From a virus (Duplodnaviria; Heunggongvirae; Uroviricota; Caudoviricetes), in IMG/VR virus record IMGVR_UViG_3300022205_000001, positions 1-64,000 of that record: a stretch of 64,000 nt of DNA; one strand, 5' to 3'. Position numbers and translations under genes: made by a program. The notes under the pieces were generated by a model, which had not been told where the DNA came from, did no database searches, and was given only the letters and a program-made list of their open reading frames with translations. Every line of letters starts with the position of its first letter. The first letter of the stretch is position 1. This document shows, piece by piece, positions 3,366-52,236 of this stretch.

Positions 3366-4826
3366 TTATTGCAGTTCCTCTCGCACCCTCCGACGAATCT
3401 CACTCAACTTATGAGTCACATGGACCCTCCCATCTACAAACACTGTGCGAAGCAACCCTCCTTCAGCTTGAGTATAATCCAATCCATCCGAAAGAACCAA
3501 TCCATTCTCACCACGATCAACACTCAAGAAACCACGAGCCGATTTCTTCAATCCTGGATCAGTCTTCGGGTTCTTTGATACATGCACCTCATTACCATCA
3601 ATGACGCCCGCGGTCGCCTTGATTGCAAATCCAAACGTATCACGAGTCACATACTGATACGTGTAGCTTCCAATACCGAATACGATGTTGGTAGAGGCAA
3701 ATCCCTTCTCTTGCAATCCCTCACAAATCTGTTTAGCTCGCTCAAGGGTAATGGAGTCGCCATAGATCATTCCGATCTTCTCGGACAACTGCTTATACCC
3801 TTTGTTGTTTACCGTTCCCCCAAATGTCTCCCACAACAGAACCGCAGTTCCTTTGTATGCAGGAGAATCCACCGGAGCATCAGGATCACCACAAATGATC
3901 TTCACAGGGTCACCGGAGTCAGGTCGCACCACCACCTTCCCATCACGAGCCTCGATTACAGACTTCAATGAAGGAAGAATATCGGTCAACACTGCCCAAT
4001 AATCCCATGTATCCGACACAATGGATACGATTCCCTTTGGGTAAACTTCGGTAATCATCCGAAGAAATGTTTCCCGCTCACCCTGCTCACCACCGAAACA
4101 CATCACCGAATGCTCAGTAGCAGGAACAGAACCCCCAATGAAATCATCCCCTGCCTTATAAAACTCCTCAAGAAAATCGATAGCAGGAATAGTGTCTGTT
4201 CCGGTAAAACTCAATAGATGGGCTCCACCCGAAACGGTAGCACTCTCAATACTAGCATGTCCTCTCATCGAGAAATCATGCCCCTGCCAATCGACAAACT
4301 CAGGGATATCCGACGTTTCCATTGCATACTTTTGTAGCAACTTCCGATACTCAAATGCAATAGTGGCGGATGTAATCGGATGCCAGAGAACCGTAGACAT
4401 CAACGTTTCAAGGAAATTCGTCAGCCAGAAAAACTCCGGCATTGTGTTCTCAATCGTCAAGAATGGAACACGCATCGGAACCCGGGTACCCTCTTGCAAG
4501 GCCCGAATACGAATCGGAAGATATCCCAAATCATACAACTTCTCAACATGATCCATTGGAACCGCATCCGGTCCTAGTGAAGTATCCAGCCGGCGCTTGT
4601 ACTTTGCTATCACTTCCTCTTTCGGCTTCTTGAAGAAGTTCGCATTGAAATCATCACACAGGTACCGCTGAACAAAATACTGAAGTCCAAAGAATACCAC
4701 ATGATCAACCCCAGGCATTCTCGATCCCCGCGCCGTCATATTGGAGTAGACCACCTCGGTCCCTTTCGGATACTGACGGCGATGATCAGTTTTATACATA
4801 TCTGATAAATGAATAGCACTATACAT
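3366..4826 (-). CDS. nadV: nicotinamide phosphoribosyltransferase (NAMPT)
   Basis: full-length similarity by eye to NAMPT (N-terminal DxYKxxHxxQYP block, GGxxxxS/T regions); size 486 aa as expected. Confidence 0.85.
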   Translation of the reverse strand: MYSAIHLSDMYKTDHRRQYPKGTEVVYSNMTARGSRMPGVDHVVFFGLQYFVQRYLCDDFNANFFKKPKEEVIAKYKRRLDTSLGPDAVPMDHVEKLYDLGYLPIRIRALQEGTRVPMRVPFLTIENTMPEFFWLTNFLETLMSTVLWHPITSATIAFEYRKLLQKYAMETSDIPEFVDWQGHDFSMRGHASIESATVSGGAHLLSFTGTDTIPAIDFLEEFYKAGDDFIGGSVPATEHSVMCFGGEQGERETFLRMITEVYPKGIVSIVSDTWDYWAVLTDILPSLKSVIEARDGKVVVRPDSGDPVKIICGDPDAPVDSPAYKGTAVLLWETFGGTVNNKGYKQLSEKIGMIYGDSITLERAKQICEGLQEKGFASTNIVFGIGSYTYQYVTRDTFGFAIKATAGVIDGNEVHVSKNPKTDPGLKKSARGFLSVDRGENGLVLSDGLDYTQAEGGLLRTVFVDGRVHVTHKLSEIRRRVREELQ

Positions 4827-4917: not shown

Positions 4918-5751
4918 CTATACAGCCCTCCGATTCATGGTGTCTTGCAACAACGGAGTCACGCAATACCTTCCCTTATAGGTGAAAATCTCGTCTATCA
5001 GTCCATCAAACACCTTCAACCCTTTCGAGAAAATCCCATGCGTTACCATCAATACAATTTTTTTCGGTTTATGATTCTTCCGAATTTCCTTTGCAATTTC
5101 AATAAACGTTCTACCTCCATCACAAATATCATCAACAATCACGCAAACATGTCCATCCAATGAGAATGCGGCATGTACCGTTGTTCCTGTGATTTCACCT
5201 GTCCCTGGGTCTCTTCGTTTACTACACTCAACCACCCCACGATGAAATGTGCTTGGAATATGCTTTGCCAAATCAAACGTTTTTTTAGACGCCCCGGCAT
5301 CCGGCGAAATCAACACCGCATGATCTTCATCTTCCAACACATTCATCAACATTGAACGAAAAATCTGTGTTTGTGTGACAGGAGAACAATTCTTGAGAAG
5401 TGCCGTCAGAACCGGAGAATGTGGATCATAGACCACCACTTTCTCGGCATTCAATCCATTGACCAAATCACACATCACACGCAACGAAAAACACTCGCCA
5501 GGGACGGCGACCCGATCTTGGCGGGAGAATGGAAAGTAAGGAATAACCAACTCACGCAATCGAATACCTGCTTCTTTGAGGGCATTGCAATATAAAAGCA
5601 ACTCTACTATGTCCTCGTTTTTCTGGAATTCCCACGTCACCTTGATACCATGGCTCAAGGCATTCCGAAATTCTTGATCAGTATTCAAACGAATATGCAT
5701 TTCACCGGCGGGAAAATTGAACGTTGAGTGGTCTACAAAAGACTGAATCAT
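4918..5751 (-). CDS. prs: ribose-phosphate pyrophosphokinase (PRPP synthetase)
   Basis: IPYFPFSRQDR, VVYDPH, ISPDAGA and VDDICDGGRT blocks match Prs PRPP/divalent-cation motifs; start at Met with GGAGGGG SD; own promoter copy at 5771-5811. Confidence 0.8.
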   Translation of the reverse strand: MIQSFVDHSTFNFPAGEMHIRLNTDQEFRNALSHGIKVTWEFQKNEDIVELLLYCNALKEAGIRLRELVIPYFPFSRQDRVAVPGECFSLRVMCDLVNGLNAEKVVVYDPHSPVLTALLKNCSPVTQTQIFRSMLMNVLEDEDHAVLISPDAGASKKTFDLAKHIPSTFHRGVVECSKRRDPGTGEITGTTVHAAFSLDGHVCVIVDDICDGGRTFIEIAKEIRKNHKPKKIVLMVTHGIFSKGLKVFDGLIDEIFTYKGRYCVTPLLQDTMNRRAV

Positions 5752-5770
5752 ACACCCCTCCATAACAACG

Positions 5771-5811
5771 ACTATGATATAATCCTATCATAGATAGGCA
5801 GAATAGTCAAG
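5771..5811 (-). promoter_or_regulatory. promoter class 1 variant (TTGACT-17-TAGGAT) upstream of prs-nadV
   Basis: palindrome TATGATAGGATTATATCATA. Confidence 0.45.
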
Positions 5812-6090
5812 CACAAAAAACACTATACAAATCAATCATTTGGGGGATTAAGATGATCGCAGAAGTCGCACCCTCTACGGCTCACCTCATGACAACAATG
5901 CATACAATGTGAGCACCAACGCACTCCCATGGTGCCCACAGTTCTATGACCTCGGAAATGGCAGACGATGGGGTTCCACACTCGTATAATCCATTGCTGC
6001 CAAATGTCAGGCACCCACAAAGAAAGGCCACGATTATACCCCCAGGCAAGCCACCACCCCTCTTCACTCACCACCACTCTGAGGCGTCGG

Positions 6091-6660
6091 TCATTCATTC
6101 CCCACCATACCTTTCGGCTGTTCATCATGCTCCAAGGTCTTCTTGAAATACTGCTGGGCAGCAACGTGATAAATCACGATACCCTCAGGCTTCATGAAAC
6201 CTGGAGATGCCACACTCCCATACTCTCGCAAATCCTCAACACACTTCTCCGCCACACCTGTTTCAAAAAGCCCTGTGTACAATACCGGGACCACATGGCA
6301 GCAAGCGGGGCGAACCGCAGCATCGCTCCATATTGAAGTGTTGAACAAAGAGAATCGCTTCTCTTTCAATCCATACTTCCGCTGAATACCGGCACCCCAC
6401 CATTCTCCATAATGACGACCGATCCCAAGACCCTTGATCAACTCTTCTTTGTGTTCAAGTGCCCAACGACCGAACCCAAAGTTATCACTCGACAAAGATT
6501 CATCGTCAGGAGTCACGAGCCAACGGCTCCGGCTCCCCACATAAAACTTCAAATCCTCAGTGACCACAATCTGTCCATTAGTGCCATCGATTTTCTCAGT
6601 AATCACACACTGTCTCGACAACCGCGGAATTTTTCTAAATGTTTCAAATTCAAGACTCAT
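6091..6660 (-). CDS. RNA ligase, Rnl2-family nucleotidyltransferase domain only (189 aa)
   Basis: motif I EKIDGTN (T4 Rnl2 EKIHGTN), GEWWGAGIQ (Rnl2 GEFAGPGIQ), PEGIVIY (motif IV EGYV); no C-terminal domain. Confidence 0.65.
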   Translation of the reverse strand: MSLEFETFRKIPRLSRQCVITEKIDGTNGQIVVTEDLKFYVGSRSRWLVTPDDESLSSDNFGFGRWALEHKEELIKGLGIGRHYGEWWGAGIQRKYGLKEKRFSLFNTSIWSDAAVRPACCHVVPVLYTGLFETGVAEKCVEDLREYGSVASPGFMKPEGIVIYHVAAQQYFKKTLEHDEQPKGMVGNE

Positions 6661-7012
6661 GATACGGTACCCATCCTTCCTGTGTTTGCATTTCCACTTT
6701 CAAATTCTCAGGCGCCATTGCGTCTTCAACTCGCTCCTCGACTGTCTTCACTCCACGCAACTTTGCCGCTTTCGCTTTCGCCCACTTCTGAAACTCTGGT
6801 GTTGCACCCATACGCCGAAACGCGGCTCGCTTGTTCTCCAATTGCGAACGATATTCCCGCGATTCTCCCCGCGCACCTGACGGAGGATGAATAATCCTCA
6901 CCCCTGATTCTGTTTTGTTTTGATTCTGTCCACCCTTCCCACCAGACCGAAAGGTCTGAATAAGACAATCACTAATAGTGACTGAGAAGAGAGGTGTTCG
7001 TTGAGGTGTCAT
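6650..7012 (-). CDS. GGQ-motif peptidyl-tRNA hydrolase, ArfB/PrfH-like release-factor domain protein
   Basis: SGGKGGQNQNKTESGVRIIH matches RF-1/ArfB GGQ loop; EYRSQLENKRAA matches ArfB QEYRSQELNREAA; basic C-terminal tail; stop overlaps ligase start by 11 nt. Confidence 0.7.
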   Translation of the reverse strand: MTPQRTPLFSVTISDCLIQTFRSGGKGGQNQNKTESGVRIIHPPSGARGESREYRSQLENKRAAFRRMGATPEFQKWAKAKAAKLRGVKTVEERVEDAMAPENLKVEMQTQEGWVPYHES

Positions 7013-7185
7013 ACTGAGGTAAACCCCTATTCGCTCGCATATTATCTTGCTGATTCTTCCAGCGTTCTACATTAAAAGGAATAGTGAGTGTTTTTGGTAA
7101 CCGTGTCCCTCTAAGGGTCACTTCAATGTAGGGAACTATCGCAGGATCATGTAACCGTGAAGATGTATCTGTTTTCATAATAAGT

Positions 7186-7474
7186 GTGAGGTGGAGGGGA
7201 TTCCAACCCCCTCAACGTTCGTCCGGCGTCCGATTATTCTGCCACAGGGCTCAATCTGCTTGCAATCAGATCTCAACGCCACCGGGAGGATTGACTACCT
7301 CCATGCTTCCGTCTACTGGTCGTGTAATAGCTACCAGAAGCATCGAGCTTGATCACCAGGGGTTCCTAATGATCTCCTTCGGCATTATCTCCGCCTTTCT
7401 ACTTGTTCTTTCCCCGGTCCCACGGGTACTCAGCTTTCTCCCTGTAGAATGAGAGAAATTCAGCCACACCTCAC
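7186..7474 (-). ncRNA. candidate structured RNA with tRNA-like T-arm and acceptor end (tmRNA-like?)
   Basis: no credible minus-strand ORF in this 290-nt span; 3' end reads GGGGG-UUGGAAU-CCCCU (T-arm) then CACCUCAC, complementary to 5' GUGAGGUG; CGGACGC upstream of T-arm as in tmRNA; internal long hairpins. Confidence 0.3.
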
Positions 7475-7479
7475 TTTTC

Positions 7480-7716
7480 CTATTCTAAGTCTCCTAAACC
7501 TGGGTTCACAAAATGCACCAATTCTCTCGGCACTGGGTATTCCCAAAACCCATTGACATCCAATTCCCCATACCCATACTCAATCGTGTCTGCTATTGAA
7601 GTAGTCACGCCAACTTTCTCACCGCGGAGAAATTTATGGATGCCGATTCGTTCGGCTCTCAGCATGGCATTCTCGGCTCGCAAATCTTTCAGTTCTTGCT
7701 GCTCTTGTTCTGTCAT
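7480..7716 (-). CDS. hypothetical protein
   Basis: ORF on dominant strand. Confidence 0.45.
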   Translation of the reverse strand: MTEQEQQELKDLRAENAMLRAERIGIHKFLRGEKVGVTTSIADTIEYGYGELDVNGFWEYPVPRELVHFVNPGLGDLE

Positions 7717-7756
7717 GATGTAAGATTATACTCCTTTCTACGCCCAATGTCAAGAA

Positions 7757-8317
7757 CTATTTTATCAACTCAGCCTTTGGAATGATGCCAGGTCCGTATG
7801 GATCATGAATATCAATGGTAAACCCATTCATGGACGGAATACCTATTCCAGGCAACACCGTATCCCAAGCCTCGCGGCGAGCTTCCCACTCTTCCTCTGT
7901 CACATCCTCAAGAGGATCGGTATTGTCCCAATACCCATACTCAGACACACCAGGCATCTTCAAAAACTTTTCAAACCATTCCCCCCGTTCAGTATACACG
8001 ATACCCAGAAACTTGTCCTCATACGGGAACACAACAAGCTGGAAATCCGTATCAACGACAGTGTTCCGCAGACCTGTCTTTTTAATTTCACGACGGAGTT
8101 CCCACCACAACGATTCCGCACGAGAGAGTTTATTTATCCCCTCTTCATCCTTCTCTTCGGGGTTCTTACATTCCGACAGAACTATCTGCATAAACTTTTT
8201 CTTCACCTCATAGGCATCCTTCAGCCAATGTTCATCATGATACTGACGAACAAGGCGCAGCACTTCCTTGAGGTCGGAGGTTGCGATACTCACTCCATAA
8301 TAAATCTTCGTGCTCAT
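7757..8317 (-). CDS. hypothetical protein (186 aa)
   Basis: ORF; ATGA start/stop overlap with upstream gene. Confidence 0.5.
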   Translation of the reverse strand: MSTKIYYGVSIATSDLKEVLRLVRQYHDEHWLKDAYEVKKKFMQIVLSECKNPEEKDEEGINKLSRAESLWWELRREIKKTGLRNTVVDTDFQLVVFPYEDKFLGIVYTERGEWFEKFLKMPGVSEYGYWDNTDPLEDVTEEEWEARREAWDTVLPGIGIPSMNGFTIDIHDPYGPGIIPKAELIK

Positions 8318-9108
8318 GCAATACCCCCGAATCGATCATTGTTTCGTCGCTTTGCCTCCAACAAGAATAACAACACATCCGATACCTCATACTCCTCAAT
8401 CTGCTCAATCCTGACCCCTCGTGAAGCACCTTTTCGAGGATGCAAGAACCACAACGTCACTCCAAGCTTAGGGGTATCACTAATGAACACGGACCCATCA
8501 GCATTGCAGGTTGGACACGTCTTTGGAAGTCCCATCCGTTTCAAACGGGCTTCAGTCAAAATCCAACGATTGATTGCATCATGTCCCAAACCACGGCGAT
8601 GCCGCTCAGAAGCGTTCACTTCCTCCGCGGTTGGCACATATCCCTCAGGCTTCCCACGAGTGAAGTCACCCAATCTACCTGCTGCAACCAGCGCCTCCAC
8701 TTCATCCTGAGTAATCTTATCGTTCCAATGAATGCCCTCAGAATTCATGTGAGGATAAAATGAATTTACCACCTCTTGTGCATCGGGGTGATAACCGTTT
8801 CCACCACAAGAAGGGCATTCTTCTGAATCTCTATTGATATGGAAATAGAAATTCACGCACTCATTCAATTCATCCAACGCCCACGGTCCAAACGCTTTCC
8901 ACGTTTCATGGATTACAGAACTTCTCCAACCATTCTCTTTGTTACCAGAATCCATATAGTCCTCACCTGGACCCCAATAGACATACTCCGGGTTATACTT
9001 AAGAGCTTCCAGTTGCCAGGGGTACGCACCCAATTTACTGGCTTCTTCACGATCACGAGCATCATTTTCATCATATGTTCTCATTTTTCTACCCCCGTTC
9101 AAATTCAC
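8314..9108 (-). CDS. hypothetical protein with two CxxC-x-G zinc-knuckle pairs
   Basis: CPSCGGNG and CPTCNADG motifs; 264 aa ORF. Confidence 0.5.
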   Translation of the reverse strand: MNLNGGRKMRTYDENDARDREEASKLGAYPWQLEALKYNPEYVYWGPGEDYMDSGNKENGWRSSVIHETWKAFGPWALDELNECVNFYFHINRDSEECPSCGGNGYHPDAQEVVNSFYPHMNSEGIHWNDKITQDEVEALVAAGRLGDFTRGKPEGYVPTAEEVNASERHRRGLGHDAINRWILTEARLKRMGLPKTCPTCNADGSVFISDTPKLGVTLWFLHPRKGASRGVRIEQIEEYEVSDVLLFLLEAKRRNNDRFGGIA

Positions 9109-9433
9109 TCAATGCCAAAGGCAGTCCCTTCAACAACCTTGCAGACTTCACACCAGGTTCTACAGCAAATGCCGTCATTTCAAAATCCACATCCGGCTCA
9201 AAAAATGGCACGACATGAAGATGTTTACCCAGCGCAACTCGTGCGAACGTCCGTAAAGCTTTTTCATCTTGTACAGACAACCAACACAAGTAATTTGATT
9301 GTCGGTGCCATTGTCTAAAGATTACAGGATATGCACAGGCAAATTCCGCCAAGGCATGTTGACTCTGAACCCCCTGGTACCCAGGTGTCATGTCCCGACG
9401 AGTAACCACATATAAATGCTTACACTTTTTCAT
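9089..9433 (-). CDS. peptidyl-tRNA hydrolase, PTH2 family-like
   Basis: KHLYVVTRRDMTPGYQGVQSQHAL vs archaeal/human Pth2 KMVVVIRNDLxMGKGKxAAQxxHA, W..Q..K.VV block, D..E.TAFAVEP vs DAGxTQ..PGT.TxxAIGP; start set to internal Met forming ATGA overlap with upstream gene. Confidence 0.55.
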   Translation of the reverse strand: MKKCKHLYVVTRRDMTPGYQGVQSQHALAEFACAYPVIFRQWHRQSNYLCWLSVQDEKALRTFARVALGKHLHVVPFFEPDVDFEMTAFAVEPGVKSARLLKGLPLALSEFERG

Positions 9434-19638: not shown

Positions 19639-19824
19639 CCCTTACACATACGACCTTCCGGCGGACCGGTCCTTGACTCGTGCATCGATCATCTCAACCA
19701 AACGTGCCAGGTCGGTATGGTTCATCGTGACCCCATAGCGTTCGGCCACATGGACCTGCCGGGTCTGATCAAACCGAACTCGCCAACCACAGTAGAAAGA
19801 ATTGTGTTTCATCGGAGACCTCCT

Positions 19825-19977
19825 TTATGCACCATCCAATCCATCTAGATCTGCCAGGCCGGCCAGGACCGGATCACACTCAGCCTCAACCAGAAAAACA
19901 GACTCCTCATACCCCTCATACGGATCACGGTCATCCCATTCATCTAACCCGTCTCGTATGTCGTCCCGTTCACTCAT
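19825..19977 (-). CDS. small acidic protein (50 aa)
   Basis: below ORF-track cutoff; GAAAGGGGAGCAC SD then ATG, directly downstream of promoter copy 19993-20034. Confidence 0.3.
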   Translation of the reverse strand: MSERDDIRDGLDEWDDRDPYEGYEESVFLVEAECDPVLAGLADLDGLDGA

Positions 19978-19992
19978 GTGCTCCCCTTTCCT

Positions 19993-20034
19993 CACTATGC
20001 TATAAGTCTATCATAATGGCAGGAGTCTGTCAAG
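19993..20034 (-). promoter_or_regulatory. promoter class 1
   Basis: CACTATGCTATAAGTCTATCATA + TTGACA. Confidence 0.5.
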
Positions 20035-20062
20035 TCCTTCTAAGTGCTTGATATGCTTCGTC

Positions 20063-20293
20063 TTACCAGGCTAACAGGGTCAGCGTATGGATAGGACCCT
20101 GGTACTCATAGCAATGCACGACACCACTATGCTTCTCTGCAACGGTCTTGACATAGGTAAAGGTCTCACCTTCATGCGTCAAGGTCTTCATGGGCCAGTC
20201 GCCATTCGCATAGACCAGGGGCATATTGGACACAAATGCCGACTTCCGCTTTTTTGGCATCGAGGCAATGTTGGTGTCTAACATCCAGTTCAC
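20063..20293 (-). CDS. hypothetical protein
   Basis: ORF; ATGA overlap with upstream gene. Confidence 0.4.
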   Translation of the reverse strand: MNWMLDTNIASMPKKRKSAFVSNMPLVYANGDWPMKTLTHEGETFTYVKTVAEKHSGVVHCYEYQGPIHTLTLLAW

Positions 20294-23524: not shown

Positions 23525-24163
23525 CTAACTCGGTACTGTTACCCCATAGGTTAGATCGGTATTCATGCCCTTCTTCTCATATTCCTTGCTGGCAAGGTGA
23601 ATAAGACACGTCAACGTGTCAGTGGAAATGGTATAACCCTGGTTCGTATACTTCAAGACTCGCAGATACGTGCCTATGGCAGAATGCAGGTCAGGACTGA
23701 CAAGGTTCATGCGTTGTGCAAGGAGATCATGATAGGCATGTGGGGTCATCCACAGGTGCTCACCATCCCATATGGTTTGACACAGGGTAAAATCAAATGC
23801 ATCAATATGAGCAAAGGCGGACGGACGGTATCGGGTACTGACCAATTGGACGGTGTACTCTTGATAGGCAAAGGTCATATGATTCGTGGTTGACGTGAGA
23901 AGGGTCGTCTCACGGGTCAGCATATCGGCGACGGTGAGTGCATACTGTTGCTGGCTGGCAAAGAAATAATCCACATCATGGTGTGGTTCATCCAGGAGAA
24001 AATGTCTCACCGCGCCGCCGGCAATCCACGGTCCAGTGGGAGAACAGACCGGTAACGGGGCCACAAAGTCGTGCCAGCGTTGTTGATCCTGTGGTGACAC
24101 ATGGGGCAGAAGATCCATGTACGGATGCCGATCAGGTTCACTCAGACAGACAGGAAACATCAT
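23525..24163 (-). CDS. Pol-beta-superfamily nucleotidyltransferase (CCA-adding-enzyme head-like)
   Basis: IAGGAVRHFLL...DVDYF resembles the GGAVRDxLLG...DxD motif of class II tRNA nucleotidyltransferases/poly(A) polymerases; only 212 aa. Confidence 0.45.
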   Translation of the reverse strand: MMFPVCLSEPDRHPYMDLLPHVSPQDQQRWHDFVAPLPVCSPTGPWIAGGAVRHFLLDEPHHDVDYFFASQQQYALTVADMLTRETTLLTSTTNHMTFAYQEYTVQLVSTRYRPSAFAHIDAFDFTLCQTIWDGEHLWMTPHAYHDLLAQRMNLVSPDLHSAIGTYLRVLKYTNQGYTISTDTLTCLIHLASKEYEKKGMNTDLTYGVTVPS

Positions 24164-26470: not shown

Positions 26471-26509
26471 TAATAAATATAGTCTAACATAATCTCAGGT
26501 ATTTGTCAA
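26471..26509 (-). promoter_or_regulatory. promoter, degenerate class 1
   Basis: TTGACAAATACCTGAGATTATGTTAGACT. Confidence 0.4.
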
Positions 26510-26964
26510 GAGGATATATGCCAAATTGCTGGATGTATAATAACACAGAATTCATTGATTCAACGGGGTTTTATGGCATGATCTACATGATCACCCATAT
26601 TCCTACCGGAAAAAAGTATATTGGGAGAAAATTCTTCACGAAAGCGGCTACCCGTCAAAAGAATAAGAAGAAGAAAAAGATTCGCGTGACCAGTGATTGG
26701 GAAACATACTATGGTTCAAATGCTGAATTGTTGGAAGACGTTGAACGTCTAGGAAAAGATCAATTCAAACGCGAAGTGTTACGGTTGTGTAAAACGCGAG
26801 GTGAGACCAATTACTATGAAGCCTATGAAATCATCGTTCGTGAAGCATTGCTCCGTGGTGACTACTATAATAAGTGGGTCTCACTGAAACTCCATCGCTC
26901 AACACTCGCCCACCTTCAATCATCCCATTCAACATCAGGTGTCAATGCATTAGGCATTTCATAA
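26503..26964 (+). CDS. GIY-YIG homing endonuclease
   Basis: FYGMIYMITHIPTGKKYIGRK gives GIY ... YIG spacing; opposite strand to all neighbours; Lys-rich linker. Confidence 0.7.
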   Translation: MSRGYMPNCWMYNNTEFIDSTGFYGMIYMITHIPTGKKYIGRKFFTKAATRQKNKKKKKIRVTSDWETYYGSNAELLEDVERLGKDQFKREVLRLCKTRGETNYYEAYEIIVREALLRGDYYNKWVSLKLHRSTLAHLQSSHSTSGVNALGIS

Positions 26965-40402: not shown

Positions 40403-42748
40403 TTACCTCTTCCTGAATGCTTGGAATGTTTTCTTCTTGACTGGTCCTGTTGTAGCCTTTCCGCCCTGCAACACGTCCGTCTTCTCTCCTGCCCCCGTTT
40501 GCATCCCAAGAATCGGTCCACCCTCTTCACCAGTATCACGAGTGGCTTCTGTTTCCGTTACCAACGTCTTGCGAAACGTTTCAAATAGACGTTGAGGAGT
40601 CGAAGACGATCCCAACACCGGATGAAATTCACTAACACCCACGCCTTGAAACACAGGTACTTCCACGCTAGTCTGGAATCGTATAGATCCATGATCATCA
40701 TCCTCCATGAATGCAGTAAATGCTTCATCTAACTTCTTTTTCGTCTCTTCCTTCGGAGCTTTGAGGGCTTTTTCCTTCTCCACCAATTTATCATGTAAGG
40801 AGAAGTGTGTGATGGACCCCTTCTTTCCAAAGCGACCGTGACCATAATACTTCAGACCCATGGCTTGGGCTTCTTGTGCAGCTTCAGACTTGCCATGCGG
40901 TGCAGTGACACTGGCCTGCTGCTTCTTGTTGCCAACAGGTTTCTTCGCCAATTGACTCACATTCGTGTAAATCCACTTCTGAGCTTCTGGATGCTTCGGG
41001 GGTTCCTGTGTAAACTTCTTGACGGTCTTGAACAAATCGAGGAGTTCTTTTCCCTTTTGCTGGTGCACTTCAGGATCTTGATTTGTTCGCAAATCTTCGT
41101 CATTGTTGAATTCGTGATAATGGTCCGTTCCAAACTCCTTAGCAAGTGCTACACGAGCATCCTGGGCGTCTCTCCACTTCTTGAGTCGTTCACCTTCAGG
41201 GACAACCCGACCCCCACGCTGACCACGTTCAATGTTTCGTTGTCGTGAGATATCATCCTTGGTGTCCACAAAGACCATCTTAGAATCATATCCCATATCA
41301 CCGAGTTGCTTCTTGATCTTCAAAATCTTCTTGGTATCCAATCCTGCGGAGTTGATCACCAGGCCATTGCGTCCCTGAATGGCAAACTTATGACGCAAAT
41401 CATCTGTTGACTTTGGTCGTGAATCCCCCAAATGACGAGCCACACTATCTACACCAATTTCCACCAATCCATGACCATCAAGGGCTTTCTTGAGCACAAA
41501 GTCTTTTCCAGAACCAGGACCACCTGCCAAGAACACGGCTTTGAAAATTCCGGCATCATGCACGGCTTCAATAAGCAGAACTTCTTCGTTGATCTTTCTG
41601 GTACATGAACATTGTACCGCACCATGAGTGCCATATGAGTGTCTAATTCTCTCCCATCCAGTTCCCTCACATTCAGGACACTTCGGATCAGGTTTTTTGA
41701 TGGTAGAAACAGGATATTTTCCTTTCAATTCTCGTTCTTCATTGGTCGTATGCCCCATCGATTTTCTCACATCATGATACAATTCTTTTGCATGATGATC
41801 CTTCACATGTCCAGGGATACCCTTTTTGAATTCGCGGTAGTTCCCTTTGGATGCATGTTCACGCATCTTACTAGCTGACATACCCGTAGTTCCTTCAGCA
41901 TCCGGGTCCCGCTCTCCAGCAGAATGTACCGTGATGGACTTGAACTTATAGCCGTGTCCTTTTTCATCAAACTTTCCATTGTGCTTATGGAGTGCATCAT
42001 GGAATTCTTTTGCTCGATCACTTCCCATGACCACATGCAAGTGCGTCACCCCTTCTTTATGGGCTTTTGCAGCATGATGGAAAATTGTTGGAGACTCCTT
42101 ATCGGAGCCTGTCACATTCGTGCCTGGGAAAAAACGCTTGGCGTGTTTGATCTTTGCTTCTTGAGAAAGTGGGTTCTTCTTTGCATCTTGTGAGTGTGAA
42201 AGAACGACCTCATGTGATGCCCCATGTGTCTTCGCCACTTCATGCACCTTATCAACTAACTTTGCATGACCAGTGGTTGGGGGATTCATTCTACCAAATG
42301 CGAGAACCTTATGTTTCTCTTTTCCTTCTGTGACGGTCATGAATGACTCCACAACAGTTTTAGTGAATGACTTTGGATAGGCTTTCATAGCAGCCAGTAA
42401 ATCTTGAATAGCACAGTCTACTACAACCGCGGGGATTGTGTCGTCAACATCACTATTCAATAAGGCAAGCCAACGATGGTGCCCATCAGCTACAAAATGA
42501 TCGTTTGAGGTCACAATTGGTTTCCTCAATTGATCACGTTCAGACCCCATGAGGGCGCGAATTTTTGTTTCGTTGAAATTTCCTTGAGAGGGATGAAGTG
42601 CTGCAACGGGGAGTTCGGTAACCTGATAATCGATCTCTCGTGTGGCAAATAACCACTCAAGAAAGTCAGGGAGATCGGCCGATCTGATTTGAGGCAAATT
42701 GGCACGATCAATGTTGAGTCCGTTTTGTGGGATATGCAGTTGTTCCAT
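40403..42748 (-). CDS. tri-domain fusion: ParB/Srx-like domain + HxGH nucleotidyltransferase (NMNAT/PPAT-like) + P-loop kinase
   Basis: DGHHRWLA (ParB-like); AFGRMNPPTTGH and GMSASKMRE (HxGH / ISSTxxR-like); CPEC...CSC zinc ribbon; VFLAGGPGSGKDF Walker A. Confidence 0.6.
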   Translation of the reverse strand: MEQLHIPQNGLNIDRANLPQIRSADLPDFLEWLFATREIDYQVTELPVAALHPSQGNFNETKIRALMGSERDQLRKPIVTSNDHFVADGHHRWLALLNSDVDDTIPAVVVDCAIQDLLAAMKAYPKSFTKTVVESFMTVTEGKEKHKVLAFGRMNPPTTGHAKLVDKVHEVAKTHGASHEVVLSHSQDAKKNPLSQEAKIKHAKRFFPGTNVTGSDKESPTIFHHAAKAHKEGVTHLHVVMGSDRAKEFHDALHKHNGKFDEKGHGYKFKSITVHSAGERDPDAEGTTGMSASKMREHASKGNYREFKKGIPGHVKDHHAKELYHDVRKSMGHTTNEERELKGKYPVSTIKKPDPKCPECEGTGWERIRHSYGTHGAVQCSCTRKINEEVLLIEAVHDAGIFKAVFLAGGPGSGKDFVLKKALDGHGLVEIGVDSVARHLGDSRPKSTDDLRHKFAIQGRNGLVINSAGLDTKKILKIKKQLGDMGYDSKMVFVDTKDDISRQRNIERGQRGGRVVPEGERLKKWRDAQDARVALAKEFGTDHYHEFNNDEDLRTNQDPEVHQQKGKELLDLFKTVKKFTQEPPKHPEAQKWIYTNVSQLAKKPVGNKKQQASVTAPHGKSEAAQEAQAMGLKYYGHGRFGKKGSITHFSLHDKLVEKEKALKAPKEETKKKLDEAFTAFMEDDDHGSIRFQTSVEVPVFQGVGVSEFHPVLGSSSTPQRLFETFRKTLVTETEATRDTGEEGGPILGMQTGAGEKTDVLQGGKATTGPVKKKTFQAFRKR

Positions 42749-49581: not shown

Positions 49582-50471
49582 ACTCGATACTTCCTTTCTA
49601 CCATAGCTCTCACTTCAGGCACACGGTCCCATTGGTGAACAATCGCATACGGCTCATTTCGAGGATTCATCACCAAATCATGCTTCGTACTATATGCAGG
49701 CCTGCATAATCCAATGTGTGGTTGATACATTGCACGTTTTGTGGGGTCCATTGTCGTACCCAACTGTGCGGCCCAGGTAGACGAATGATTTGCGAAAAAC
49801 GTACACTCCTGGTAAACGGGTGTATCTAATAGAATGTTGTATGCAGCTTGATCAGGTCCTCCACCGCCGGGAACAAATTGCGGGGCCCCGCCACACATCA
49901 ATGCTATCGTCTTACACATTCCTAGATATGTCTTTGCTTCACCAGCAGTAACTCCAGCATTATAGATCATGTTTCTGAGGTGAGTTTTGTGAATGTGCGG
50001 ACCAAATGATTGGAGAAGATTGTTGTTCCCCCATGGCTCTTGTTCATATGTCAGTTCTTCGCACGATGCTAAAATATGTTTACCGGACTGCTCCAAGTAA
50101 TATTCAAGGTGAGCACTAGGGTTATGTTGAAAAATGACATCCTTCACGTCTGTGGCGAGGATATATCTCACATCATTCATATGAGATAACAACATGTAAT
50201 AGTGCATGAAACGTTCAACAACGATGGAGAAGGGATTCTTTTTGTAGACGAGATTGCCGACTGGATCTTGCTCAAATGCAAGAACGGTGTATTTACGGGA
50301 AACCAACTCCCGCACTGTTGCAACATCCATGTTGTATGCGAGGACTACTTTATACCCAGAGAATCCTGAACGGTCGAGGGAATTGACCCAAGGAGCAATC
50401 TGATCAAAATTGTATCCTGTGACGGCTCCTACGATGAGGTCCCTCTGTGTTGATCTTTCCATAATTTCCAC
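49578..50471 (-). CDS. hypothetical protein in glycan cassette
   Basis: ORF. Confidence 0.45.
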   Translation of the reverse strand: MEIMERSTQRDLIVGAVTGYNFDQIAPWVNSLDRSGFSGYKVVLAYNMDVATVRELVSRKYTVLAFEQDPVGNLVYKKNPFSIVVERFMHYYMLLSHMNDVRYILATDVKDVIFQHNPSAHLEYYLEQSGKHILASCEELTYEQEPWGNNNLLQSFGPHIHKTHLRNMIYNAGVTAGEAKTYLGMCKTIALMCGGAPQFVPGGGGPDQAAYNILLDTPVYQECTFFANHSSTWAAQLGTTMDPTKRAMYQPHIGLCRPAYSTKHDLVMNPRNEPYAIVHQWDRVPEVRAMVERKYRV

Positions 50472-50998
50472 TTTTTCTTAGCAGCAAGACTAATCTTCTG
50501 CTTAGTTTCTAATGATAATGTTCTTCCTACTCCACTTATAGCAATTTTCTTTTTAGTTTCTTCGGTATGTTTTCTCCCAAGATTATATTTATTTCCAAAT
50601 GCATGTGCGGTACACTTCTGTATATGCTCTTTGGTTAGTTTGCGCCCCTTCGTATGTTGATTACCCTTCAACATAATGCTTCTAGCTAACTTTGCTTCAT
50701 GTGACCAAGGTTTACGAGGATGAATTTTCCAGTATAATACCGATTTCTTTTGATTTTCGCGTGAAATTTCTCTCAACACTTCTTCTTTTCCAATTCGCCC
50801 CGATAAAAATTGATAGGCTAACTTGTCACCTAATTTTGGAACCCCATCTACAGGATCATCATAATATCGTTTATGAACCTCAATATGCTGTTCAAGGGTC
50901 AACCAAACATAGTTATCCTTGTCATTGAATCCTCTCAAATTCCCAAAACGCACCTTCCATTCATGACGAGGAATAATATGATGTTTATGGGTGATCAC
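50429..50998 (-). CDS. HNH homing endonuclease
   Basis: HKHHIIPRHEW...WLTLEQHIEVH. Confidence 0.65.
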   Translation of the reverse strand: MITHKHHIIPRHEWKVRFGNLRGFNDKDNYVWLTLEQHIEVHKRYYDDPVDGVPKLGDKLAYQFLSGRIGKEEVLREISRENQKKSVLYWKIHPRKPWSHEAKLARSIMLKGNQHTKGRKLTKEHIQKCTAHAFGNKYNLGRKHTEETKKKIAISGVGRTLSLETKQKISLAAKKKWKLWKDQHRGTSS

Positions 50999-52236
50999 TT
51001 ACTCCAATCCTTTGCTACGGTAAAGTTCGCATGACTGAACTCCATTCGATCAACCAACTTCACAGCATTGCCAATGTGATCAATGGCCACAAATCCTTCC
51101 GGTCGGGTAACTCGGTATCCATCACTTGTCTTCAGAAAGGTATGTGTGGATTGCACTTGGGAGAGCTTATGTAAGACAAATAGTTTAGCAGAAACCAATG
51201 CATTTTGCAAGTCAAAAATTCGCTTGAGGTCCGAATTATGCGCCCGGAAGAATCCTACCACAAGAGTCTTTTCCTGTAATCTCTTTCGCTGAGTTTCAGG
51301 CTTCTTTGCTTCGCGTACTGCGGTAGACATCTTATCATCTAACCAACGAATAAACGCATTGGTATGAGCCGATGTATCCTTAATACCCTCTCCAGACCTT
51401 ACCGCTCGATTGTTGAAGGTCTTCACATACAACCGATATGTATCATTCAACGCAATCTGGTTGAGTGCTTTGGAATTCACCCCACCCAATATATGCCCCA
51501 CTGTAGTCATTATGGCATTGAATTGTGCCGTTTCTTCTGCGGTGAATGACGCGGTACCTGATTCATCCACAAAACTAGCATCGCGGAACCACACATCTTT
51601 TACATGATGCAGGTATCCCAAATCAACATTGAATGAGGCTTTCATCTGAGAAAGACTTTTGCCGGTGTATTCTGTATGGAACACAATCCCCAACTGTGCT
51701 TTCAGCAGTCTATCAGCAAGAGGAGTATCACGAGGAATGGCATAGGTGATCGTATTTGGAGTGAAGGTGACATACTTCGCACCCTCAATCTCTTTCACTT
51801 CCACTGAGGATTTTGTAAACAACATGTCACCTTGCAGTACCCCTTTGATCCCAAGCTTCGGGAGATAACGCAAGCAGAGAATCAACTTCTCTTGGAGTCC
51901 AGGAGATTCATGGTTCGATAAGATATCTTTCTCAGTATAATTCATTTTCGCATTCTTTGCGAATACACTCTTCGTGCCCACAAAGAATTTCCCATTCTCA
52001 GGATTGATCCCACAGATTACCGCAGGAGCCCCATCCCATTTTGTGGTGATGTTAACTGGGTACTTTGAGTGTCCAGAGAACATATCACGTAGCGATAACA
52101 AGAAATGGATAGCATCACGGGCACCAGAAACTCCCTGATTCAACACCAAATCCTCAATGTGTTCTAGGTGGACATTTTTGTCTGTTGTGGATTCTGTGAG
52201 AAAACTTGTGAATGATAGCATGGTTACACAAAGCAA
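50995..52236 (-). CDS. RNA ligase 1 (T4 RnlA-like)
   Basis: ITTKWDGAPAVICGINPENGKFFVGTKSVFA aligns with T4 Rnl1 [29 protein letters not shown] (motif I KxDG); C-terminal PEGFVAIDHIG vs NIEGYVAVMKDG (motif IV). Confidence 0.55.
   Translation of the reverse strand: MLCVTMLSFTSFLTESTTDKNVHLEHIEDLVLNQGVSGARDAIHFLLSLRDMFSGHSKYPVNITTKWDGAPAVICGINPENGKFFVGTKSVFAKNAKMNYTEKDILSNHESPGLQEKLILCLRYLPKLGIKGVLQGDMLFTKSSVEVKEIEGAKYVTFTPNTITYAIPRDTPLADRLLKAQLGIVFHTEYTGKSLSQMKASFNVDLGYLHHVKDVWFRDASFVDESGTASFTAEETAQFNAIMTTVGHILGGVNSKALNQIALNDTYRLYVKTFNNRAVRSGEGIKDTSAHTNAFIRWLDDKMSTAVREAKKPETQRKRLQEKTLVVGFFRAHNSDLKRIFDLQNALVSAKLFVLHKLSQVQSTHTFLKTSDGYRVTRPEGFVAIDHIGNAVKLVDRMEFSHANFTVAKDWSK

Follow-up and report, generated by a model that had tools for sequence, protein, structure and literature searches.

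A stand-alone GGQ-domain gene beside an adenylyltransferase-only RNA ligase, headed by a new structured RNA, in a T4-like phage

The locus described here is characterized by three linked components: a gene for a stand-alone GGQ domain, a gene for a short, adenylyltransferase-only RNA ligase, and a structured RNA of about 290 nucleotides (nt) encoded upstream of both. It occupies positions 6091-7474 of a 64,000-nt stretch of viral DNA (positions 1 to 64,000 of the IMG/VR record IMGVR_UViG_3300022205_000001; hereafter the window), itself part of the 168-kb metagenomic contig ERZ27296354 in ENA. The source phage is T4-like. Its DNA polymerase shares no more than about 50% identity with that of any deposited phage, the nearest being those of cyanophage-type T4-likes, and a DNA-level search of 5800-7800 against deposited phages gives zero matches. 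The genes around 6091-7474 all lie on the minus strand. The elements of the locus, in the order of transcription and with the evidence for each, are:

7482..7511, minus strand: sigma-70-type promoter (consensus scan and alignment of relatives)
7180..7475, minus strand: structured RNA of about 290 nt (fold z-score, homologues, covariation)
6972..7178, minus strand: small open reading frame (ORF) of 68 amino acids (aa), optional within the lineage (homologues in some relatives)
6650..7012, minus strand: stand-alone GGQ-domain gene, 120 aa (Pfam, NCBIfam, PDB sequence, PHROG, Foldseek)
6091..6660, minus strand: adenylyltransferase-only RNA ligase gene, 189 aa (Pfam PF09414, phrog_548, invariant motifs, Foldseek)

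The GGQ codons lie at 6926-6934 and the codon of the ligase motif I lysine, K23, at 6592-6594.

An initial annotation, made from the letters of the DNA, had assigned the 120-aa protein to the GGQ release-factor domain, and this assignment holds. The protein matches the Pfam RF-1 domain (PF00472) at 60.7 bits against a cutoff of 35 (E = 1.6e-16), with residues 11-84 aligned to profile positions 7-82 of 116, and the PHROG family phrog_3122, ‘RF-1 domain peptide chain release factor’, at E = 7e-35. The catalytic loop residues G27, G28 and Q29 are invariant across 40 homologues. Sequence matches in the PDB are to RF1, RF2 and PrfH, with RF1 and mtRF1 at about E = 1e-10; likewise, Foldseek comparisons of the AlphaFold2 model (predicted local distance difference test, pLDDT, 87) are led by mtRF1, RF1, RF2 and PrfH and support membership in the release-factor domain 3 family. 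The NCBIfam scores for RF2, RF1, PrfH and ArfB are 56.7, 55, 53.1 and 25.8 bits, respectively. The further features that had been taken to ally the protein with ArfB do not survive scrutiny: the supposedly ArfB-like segment EYRSQLENKRAA is an RSQxxNK segment common to RF1, across which the PDB alignments to mtRF1 and RF1 run; the ArfB model aligns with residues 10-41 only, its 25.8 bits standing against a cutoff of 100; and the ‘basic tail’ is an error, as residues 82-120 hold five lysines or arginines against eight aspartates or glutamates. The basic patch of the protein is instead the helix region at residues 61-88, as seen in both sequence and model. The remainder of the RF-1 profile is replaced by a net acidic, family-specific C-terminal extension of two helices and a β-hairpin. 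With respect to PrfH, which has a domain 2/4-like module besides its GGQ domain and about 200 aa in all, the alignment covers model positions 106-177 of 200, at 53 bits against a cutoff of 166. The protein is a bare catalytic domain that lacks a stop-codon-reading domain, a PrfH-type domain and an ArfB-type tail; judged by its sequence and predicted structure, it is of the RF1/RF2/PrfH domain-3 type and a predicted peptidyl-tRNA hydrolase. The family to which it belongs is large: its close metagenomic relatives number more than 1,200, and the label ‘RF-1’ is carried by hundreds of genes in deposited phages. We found no experimental study of this stand-alone phage family in the literature.

The assignment of the downstream gene to the RNA-ligase nucleotidyltransferases is likewise sound, with a match to the Pfam RNA_ligase family (PF09414) at 56.6 bits against a cutoff of 27 (E = 4.7e-15) and to phrog_548, ‘RNA ligase’, in PHROG. 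Residues K23, D25, G26, E86, S104-N107, E159, G160 and K173 are invariant in 40 homologues; by eye these correspond to motif I (K23/D25/G26), Ia, III (E86), IIIa (S104-N107), IV (E159/G160) and V (K173). Searches of PDB chains by sequence return no match at E up to 1. The AlphaFold2 model (pLDDT 88) has no extra domain, and its best Foldseek match is Naegleria NgrRnl, an Rnl5 ligase (E = 5e-5, TMq 0.55-0.59), followed by T4 Rnl2. Hence, of the original designation as an Rnl2-type enzyme, the PF09414 family and the Rnl2-Rnl5 fold stand, whereas strict membership in Rnl2 does not: NgrRnl is the nearer structure, and the protein ends about 15 residues past motif V, without the C-terminal helical domain of Rnl2. 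Neither is it a typical Rnl5 ligase, as only 16 residues precede the first strand, the motif I lysine is already residue 23, and there is no N-terminal OB-like module. Based on sequence and model comparisons, the ligase is best classified as a domain-only member of PF09414 within the Rnl2/Rnl5 clade. It has at least 7,987 relatives at E ≤ 1e-5, and those among the 120 matches listed are mostly 175-200 aa long; no biochemical study of this form of about 180-190 aa was found in the literature.

The third component emerges from the minus strand of 7185-7475, which folds with a minimum-free-energy z-score of -3.47. The 5' end of the RNA (GUGAGGUG) pairs with its 3' end (CACCUCAC) in a terminal helix of 8 base pairs (bp), formed by 7467-7474 with 7186-7193; stacked on it is a GC-rich 6-bp hairpin (7208-7213 with 7194-7199, loop GUUGGAAU), and the interior consists of several hairpins enclosed by a long-range helix. 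Homologues are present in seven other contigs, and RNAalifold recovers 79 pairs, 37 of them with compensatory changes. As a control for covariation, we slid the partners by 1-3 columns in the eight-sequence alignment: standard pairs fill 96% of the cells in the true structure as opposed to about 41% in the slid versions, and 39 of 91 pairs are changed on both sides as opposed to 7-11. The terminal helix itself covaries, with three kinds of pair (A-U, G-C and U-A) at one position and two (U-A and G-C) at another, its successive pairs being G-C, U-A, G-C, A-U/G-C/U-A, G-C, G-C, U-A/G-C and G-C, with no G:U. A six-pair pseudoknot between the hairpin loop UUCUAC and the conserved single strand GUAGAA, paired in 97.9% of cells with wobble changes only, is probable: it is consistent with the alignment rather than proven by it. 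A candidate kissing loop (A7 columns 187-190 and 215-218) is 84% paired, with one double change. The RNA is thus genuine and heavily covarying, and constitutes a new family that is neither a tRNA nor a transfer-messenger RNA (tmRNA).

Wherever this RNA is present, it lies upstream of a GGQ gene. As far as searched, it is found only in the lineage of the source phage: a 22-mer pattern run over IMG/VR, JGI metagenomes and GTDB genomes recovers its own lineage only, three further matches being chance ones within bacterial coding sequences, and 82 other loci give no match to a covariance model. Of the 37 loci from a 14-mer scan of IMG/VR, 36 were chance matches. Two contigs of the lineage, L102 and L115 (the L-numbers are our identifiers for contigs and loci), carry the GGQ-ligase pair with no RNA in the flanking sequence covered.

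A promoter is placed at a fixed distance from the RNA in all copies. In the window it consists of TTGTGA and TAGAAT separated by 18 nt, and about 7 nt separate its end from the first base of the terminal helix; six relatives have TTGACA (TTGACG in L001), a 17-18-nt spacer and a TATACT-, TATAAT-, TAGTAT- or TAACAT-like hexamer. The position of this sigma-70-type promoter makes the first base of the terminal helix the likely start of transcription. A closing helix beside expression signals is the usual layout of riboswitches, and this raises the alternative that the RNA is a cis-acting 5' leader, rather than a free-standing molecule, that would set the expression of the GGQ-ligase pair in response to a tRNA, a metabolite or a component of the ribosome. 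Its appeal lies in the conserved promoter directly upstream and the predicted start at the terminal helix, in the next start codon being only 8-32 nt past the 3' strand of that helix, and in L119, where neither a U-tract nor an ORF separates the RNA from the GGQ gene. However, in most copies a U-rich run follows right after the terminal helix, as would suit a discrete RNA; the gene after the RNA varies among relatives, belonging to either of two ORF families or being absent; and L102 and L115 retain the pair without the RNA. We consider the leader explanation rather unlikely as a whole, although a discrete stable RNA and a cis-regulatory leader are both compatible with the data.

The slot between the RNA and the GGQ gene is itself variable. 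The ORF-free stretch noted in the initial annotation is real (a 301-nt gap at 7179-7479 with no credible ORF), whereas the roughly 170 nt thought to separate the RNA from the GGQ gene turn out to be the 68-aa ORF at 6972-7178, which is conserved in some relatives, namely L108, L109 and L110. In L001, L103 and L106 the slot is taken by a small ORF family unrelated to it, and in L119 the GGQ start codon lies 32 nt past the RNA. These two alternating, unrelated families (about 59-71 aa) have no family match, and the 68-aa ORF of the window in particular matches nothing in Pfam or PHROG. At the other end of the GGQ gene, the 11-nt overlap of its stop with the start of the ligase gene (ATGAGTCTTGA) is confirmed; the co-translation read from it, however, lacks support, since 54 of 111 neighbouring gene pairs in the window overlap (in a crude longest-ORF set) and overlap is therefore weak evidence of coupling.

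The description of the RNA as carrying a tRNA-like T-arm and acceptor end invites comparison with tRNA and tmRNA. The helices are real, but they do not form a canonical tRNA arm: the hairpin has a 6-bp stem and a loop of 8-9 nt, in a register fixed by covariation, as against the 5-bp stem and 7-nt loop of a T arm. ARAGORN reports no tRNA, tmRNA or permuted tmRNA in the window or at the same position in relatives. Among Rfam 15 families, none reaches its gathering threshold in the window, and none, including all tmRNA and tRNA models, covers the RNA of the window or of six homologues, even with E values allowed up to 10. This silence also argues against RNase P RNA, group I and II introns, Y RNA, 6S and SRP, as well as against T-box, HEARO, ROOL, GOLLD and raiA; matches to CRISPR-DR36 and an HCV element nearby (E 3-4) are by chance. 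A tRNA split by a group I intron was considered and set aside, as no D-arm or anticodon arm could be drawn and a promoter, in place of an exon, lies upstream. Frames for a tag peptide ending at conserved UAGs vary between homologues and, by eye, overlap covarying stems. There is, moreover, no G3:U70 pair of the tRNA-Ala-like acceptor of tmRNA and no CCA after the terminal helix, and no conserved tag frame is discernible by eye.

Could the RNA nonetheless be a degenerate or divergent tmRNA, or another tRNA-like molecule that enters the A site with the GGQ protein as its partner? Like tmRNA, it falls in a similar size range, has paired 5' and 3' ends and a stacked GC-rich hairpin, and occurs in a phage context linked to ribosome rescue; its terminal helix stacks on the hairpin as in a tRNA minihelix, and its constant place upstream of the GGQ gene is paralleled by other phages in which the GGQ gene lies among tRNAs and, once, near a tmRNA (L056). 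Some mycobacterial tRNA arrays contain genes for RF-1, Pth and tmRNA together (PMC5966550). Unlike tmRNA, however, it lacks each defining tmRNA property that was examined, and the presence of the pair without the RNA in L102 and L115 also speaks against such a partnership. We regard this explanation as very improbable.

To place the pair in a wider context, we examined its neighbourhoods across phages. Within the lineage of the source phage, the GGQ and ligase genes are adjacent in every contig examined (L001, L102, L103/104/105, L106, L107-109, L110, L115/116 and L119), and GGQ identity across these contigs is 70-91%. Such constancy within one lineage could alone reflect inherited synteny. 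The impression in the initial annotation that a GGQ-Rnl2-like pairing had not been described in phages is borne out among deposited genomes: none of the 329 INPHARED records matching either gene carries both. Among 63 unselected IMG/VR loci that carry the GGQ gene, 28 (about 45%) have tRNA genes within 4 kb, nine have RtcB or fragments of it, and two have a PF09414 ligase. The association with RtcB takes two forms. One is seen in T4-like contigs: in L122 and L002, with L003 showing part of it, a GGQ gene 67% identical to that of the window lies one small gene downstream of RtcB. In prophage-type phages of Mycobacterium abscessus, the order is a tRNA array, RF-1, tRNA-Glu, an RtcB-like ligase, a hypothetical gene and a peptidyl-tRNA hydrolase. 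The recurrence of two unrelated ligase families beside one GGQ family in separate phage groups is what a functional partnership would be expected to produce. It also lends independent support to the parallel, drawn at the outset, with the bacterial PrfH-RtcB pair.

Several further observations were made in these neighbourhoods. Within a tRNA array of the 215-kb viral contig L056, a phage tmRNA (5416-5807) follows the GGQ gene at a distance of about 1.1 kb. Two phage contigs, L015 (6127-6204) and L024 (5278-5356), have a CUA-anticodon tRNA 1-2 kb further downstream than the GGQ gene; ARAGORN calls it ‘tRNA-Pyl’, which makes it an amber-suppressor type. L111 (1-395), L112 (1-395) and L114 (377-604), which are from related phages without the ligase, have Acb2/Tad1-hairpin genes 2.4-3 kb upstream of the GGQ gene. 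The Acb2/Tad1-hairpin family comprises anti-CBASS and anti-Thoeris sponges, and its presence suggests that the GGQ gene tends toward anti-defence neighbourhoods. In the window, the ligase gene is directly followed, on the minus strand, by two adjacent genes, one PRPS-like (4918-5763) and one NAMPT-like (3366-4826). In most relatives examined, this pair follows the GGQ-ligase genes; in L110 a LAGLIDADG-type ORF (5150-5530) is inserted between its members. Judged by sequence, the pair resembles phage NARP1 (Adps + Namat), and its members are candidate counter-defence genes. NARP1 is a phage pathway of NAD+ reconstitution that acts as a counter-defence system.

The closest functional parallel to the pair is found in bacteria, where PrfH-RtcB has been shown experimentally to rescue and then repair nuclease-damaged ribosomes (PMC9304027, PMC13166195). 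As with PrfH and RtcB2, the phage gene for a GGQ hydrolase adjoins that for an RNA ligase, which in the sister phages is RtcB itself, and the phage GGQ domain scores about equally against PrfH, RF1 and RF2. The differences are as follows: the phage protein is domain 3 only, in 120 aa, without the domain by which PrfH recognises damage to the decoding centre; the ligase of the window is of the ATP-dependent PF09414 type that would need 3'-OH/5'-phosphate ends; the system is viral and not chromosomal; and its operon is headed by a structured RNA. RtcB, for its part, joins 3'-phosphate or cyclic-phosphate ends to 5'-OH ends. By tblastn no RtcB gene is present in the 64-kb window, and the locus is not a PrfH-type RtcB operon. 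The mycobacteriophage RF-1 genes found in tRNA arrays (phrog_3122) belong to the same family as the GGQ gene, with 50-57% identity over about 90% of the length; unlike those loci, the window has no tRNA genes (ARAGORN), a PF09414 neighbour, and a structured RNA that is not a tRNA where the others have tRNA genes. The ligase shares its adenylyltransferase fold, motif set and PF09414 membership with the Rnl5 (NgrRnl, DraRnl) and Rnl2 (T4 gp24.1) enzymes, and differs in lacking both the N-terminal module of the former and the C-terminal domain of the latter. ArfB, ICT1 and C12orf65 act without stop-codon recognition, and the GGQ protein is like them in being small and essentially a single GGQ domain. 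It has no basic C-terminal tail such as ArfB uses to probe the empty mRNA channel; moreover, ArfB is outside its top 50 Foldseek matches and C12orf65 ranks 41 and 46.

Taking these comparisons together, we tentatively propose, as a reading that we hold at slightly less than an even chance, that the GGQ protein and the ligase form a ‘rescue and repair’ pair for phage counter-defence, comparable in its working to PrfH-RtcB but built of different parts. Promoter, RNA of about 290 nt, optional small ORF, GGQ gene and mini-ligase would constitute a single transcription unit. A host defence nuclease or toxin would break tRNA, rRNA or mRNA, causing ribosomes to jam; the GGQ protein would most likely cut the nascent chain from the P-site tRNA on the jammed ribosomes; and the ligase would then reseal the broken RNA at its 3'-OH/5'-phosphate ends. 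That this would serve counter-defence is suggested by the PRPS/NAMPT-like pair downstream and the Acb2/Tad1-type genes near the GGQ gene in relatives. The RNA could act as a stable partner or decoy, or as the leader controlling the operon. Hydrolysis of peptidyl-tRNA by phages on ribosomes jammed by cleaved tRNA is a published idea for PTH2 (PMC7824862).

Several considerations weigh against this proposal. Gene context is the source of all that it says about function: that ribosomes are the substrate, which step comes first, what damage is mended and whether the RNA takes part. With neither a decoding-centre domain nor an ArfB tail, the GGQ protein leaves unexplained how a stalled ribosome would be found. 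Many ribotoxins leave 2',3'-cyclic-phosphate and 5'-OH ends, whereas ligases of this type, as established for Rnl2 and Rnl5, need 3'-OH and 5'-phosphate ends. Near the ligase no end-healing kinase or phosphatase was identified with Pfam and PHROG, and the upstream ORFs of 78, 186 and 264 aa, considered for this role, match nothing in either. As the account of Deinococcus DraRnl has it, the N-terminal module of that enzyme is important for adenylylation and nick sealing (PMC1807946), so that a domain-only ligase may be incomplete alone.

The remaining points against the ‘rescue and repair’ proposal concern gene context, and they equally favor a different account, in which the two genes are neighbours by synteny without a shared pathway. 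The GGQ protein would then be a general helper of phage translation, e.g. clearing stalled ribosomes or dropped-off peptidyl-tRNA under the flood of phage mRNA or tRNA, and the mini-ligase would serve nucleic-acid metabolism, e.g. sealing nicks with ribonucleotide 3' ends during replication. Outside the lineage of the source phage, the two genes are mostly apart. The ligase occurs without the GGQ gene among DNA-replication and nucleotide-metabolism genes in the cultured Caulobacter and Rhizobium phages, and alone in the metagenomic phages L123-126; the GGQ gene, in turn, lies between DnaE and RecA in the cluster C mycobacteriophages (Bixzunavirus). Overlapping genes are the rule in the source genome, and the RF-1 gene of tRNA arrays has been linked to extra rescue capacity (PMC5966550). 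What such drift explains poorly is the recurrence of RtcB and PF09414 ligases beside the same GGQ family in at least three phage groups. On balance, we judge the synteny account somewhat unlikely.

A bolder reading would make the RNA a novel class of phage RNA acting jointly with the bare GGQ domain, such that RNA, GGQ protein and ligase form a three-part system of translation rescue. We see this as a long shot. It may take either of two forms: the minihelix-like end of the RNA may dock the hydrolase in the A site of a stalled ribosome, in the manner of tmRNA and SmpB though without a tag; or the RNA may be a tRNA-shaped decoy or sensor for host nucleases that target tRNAs.

Cleavage of tRNA, rRNA or mRNA by host defences is a major theme of the conflict between phages and bacteria, and viruses are known to answer it with spare tRNAs and with heal-and-seal ligases. 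If confirmed, a stand-alone viral GGQ protein repeatedly wired to RNA ligases would add a missing step, namely the clearing of jammed ribosomes ahead of RNA mending or in the course of it; to our knowledge, this is documented only for the bacterial PrfH-RtcB. Because the GGQ family is common, the rescue hypothesis is directly testable. The adenylyltransferase-only ligase could be of practical use as a minimal RNA ligase, and the RNA adds a new structured family that is well supported and has both its promoter and its genomic partner defined; the three-part rescue system, if real, would be without a described counterpart. The general idea of phage kits for RNA repair and ribosome rescue has been published (PMC7824862, PMC9503650), and RF-1-domain genes in the tRNA arrays of mycobacteriophages have been noted (PMC5966550). 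In the literature we found no published description of this stand-alone GGQ family being linked to RNA ligases, of the PF09414 version of that link, or of the RNA.

The initial annotation had further joined the pair with three other genes of the window into a phage ‘toolkit’ against host nucleases that target translation, which is not supported, as the family matches of these genes are weak or absent. One of them is:

9089..9433, minus strand: possible PTH2-like hydrolase, uncertain and given for context (weak Pfam match, PHROG match)

This gene has a PHROG match to phrog_3668, ‘hydrolase’ (E = 3.8e-7), but its match to Pfam PTH2 (E = 0.082) is below the cutoff, and the protein has no relevant PDB sequence match. 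The gene at 23525-24163, proposed as CCA-enzyme-like, does encode a generic Pol-beta-type nucleotidyltransferase, though the evidence for a CCA enzyme is weak (PolyA_pol head, E = 0.0065). The supposed Rnl1-like ligase at 50995-52236 has ligase-like motifs by eye, but it belongs to DUF6267 and has no Rnl1 match in Pfam. This DUF6267 protein (413 aa; region 50429-52236, minus strand) shows KWDG, EGFV and KLVD motifs by eye and has no PDB match. It lies in the replication module and may be a phage DNA ligase. The next ORF downstream of it has a NUMOD3 motif, typical of homing endonucleases.

Other features of the window touch on NAD metabolism and mobile elements. At 40403-42748, on the minus strand, a 781-aa protein combines cytidylyltransferase/NMNAT-like and Zeta-toxin/AAA_33 P-loop kinase domains; it may be NadR-like and provide a second route of NAD salvage. 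The large gap at 19639-20171 has an ordinary predicted structure, with a z-score of +0.58. Finally, a 743-nt gap in a block of minus-strand genes holds a lone plus-strand ORF of 153 aa (26503-26964), the N-terminus of which resembles, by eye, the GIY-YIG motif of homing endonucleases (GFYGMIYMITHIPTGKKYIGRK), and at this ORF the GC content falls from about 0.51 to 0.44.

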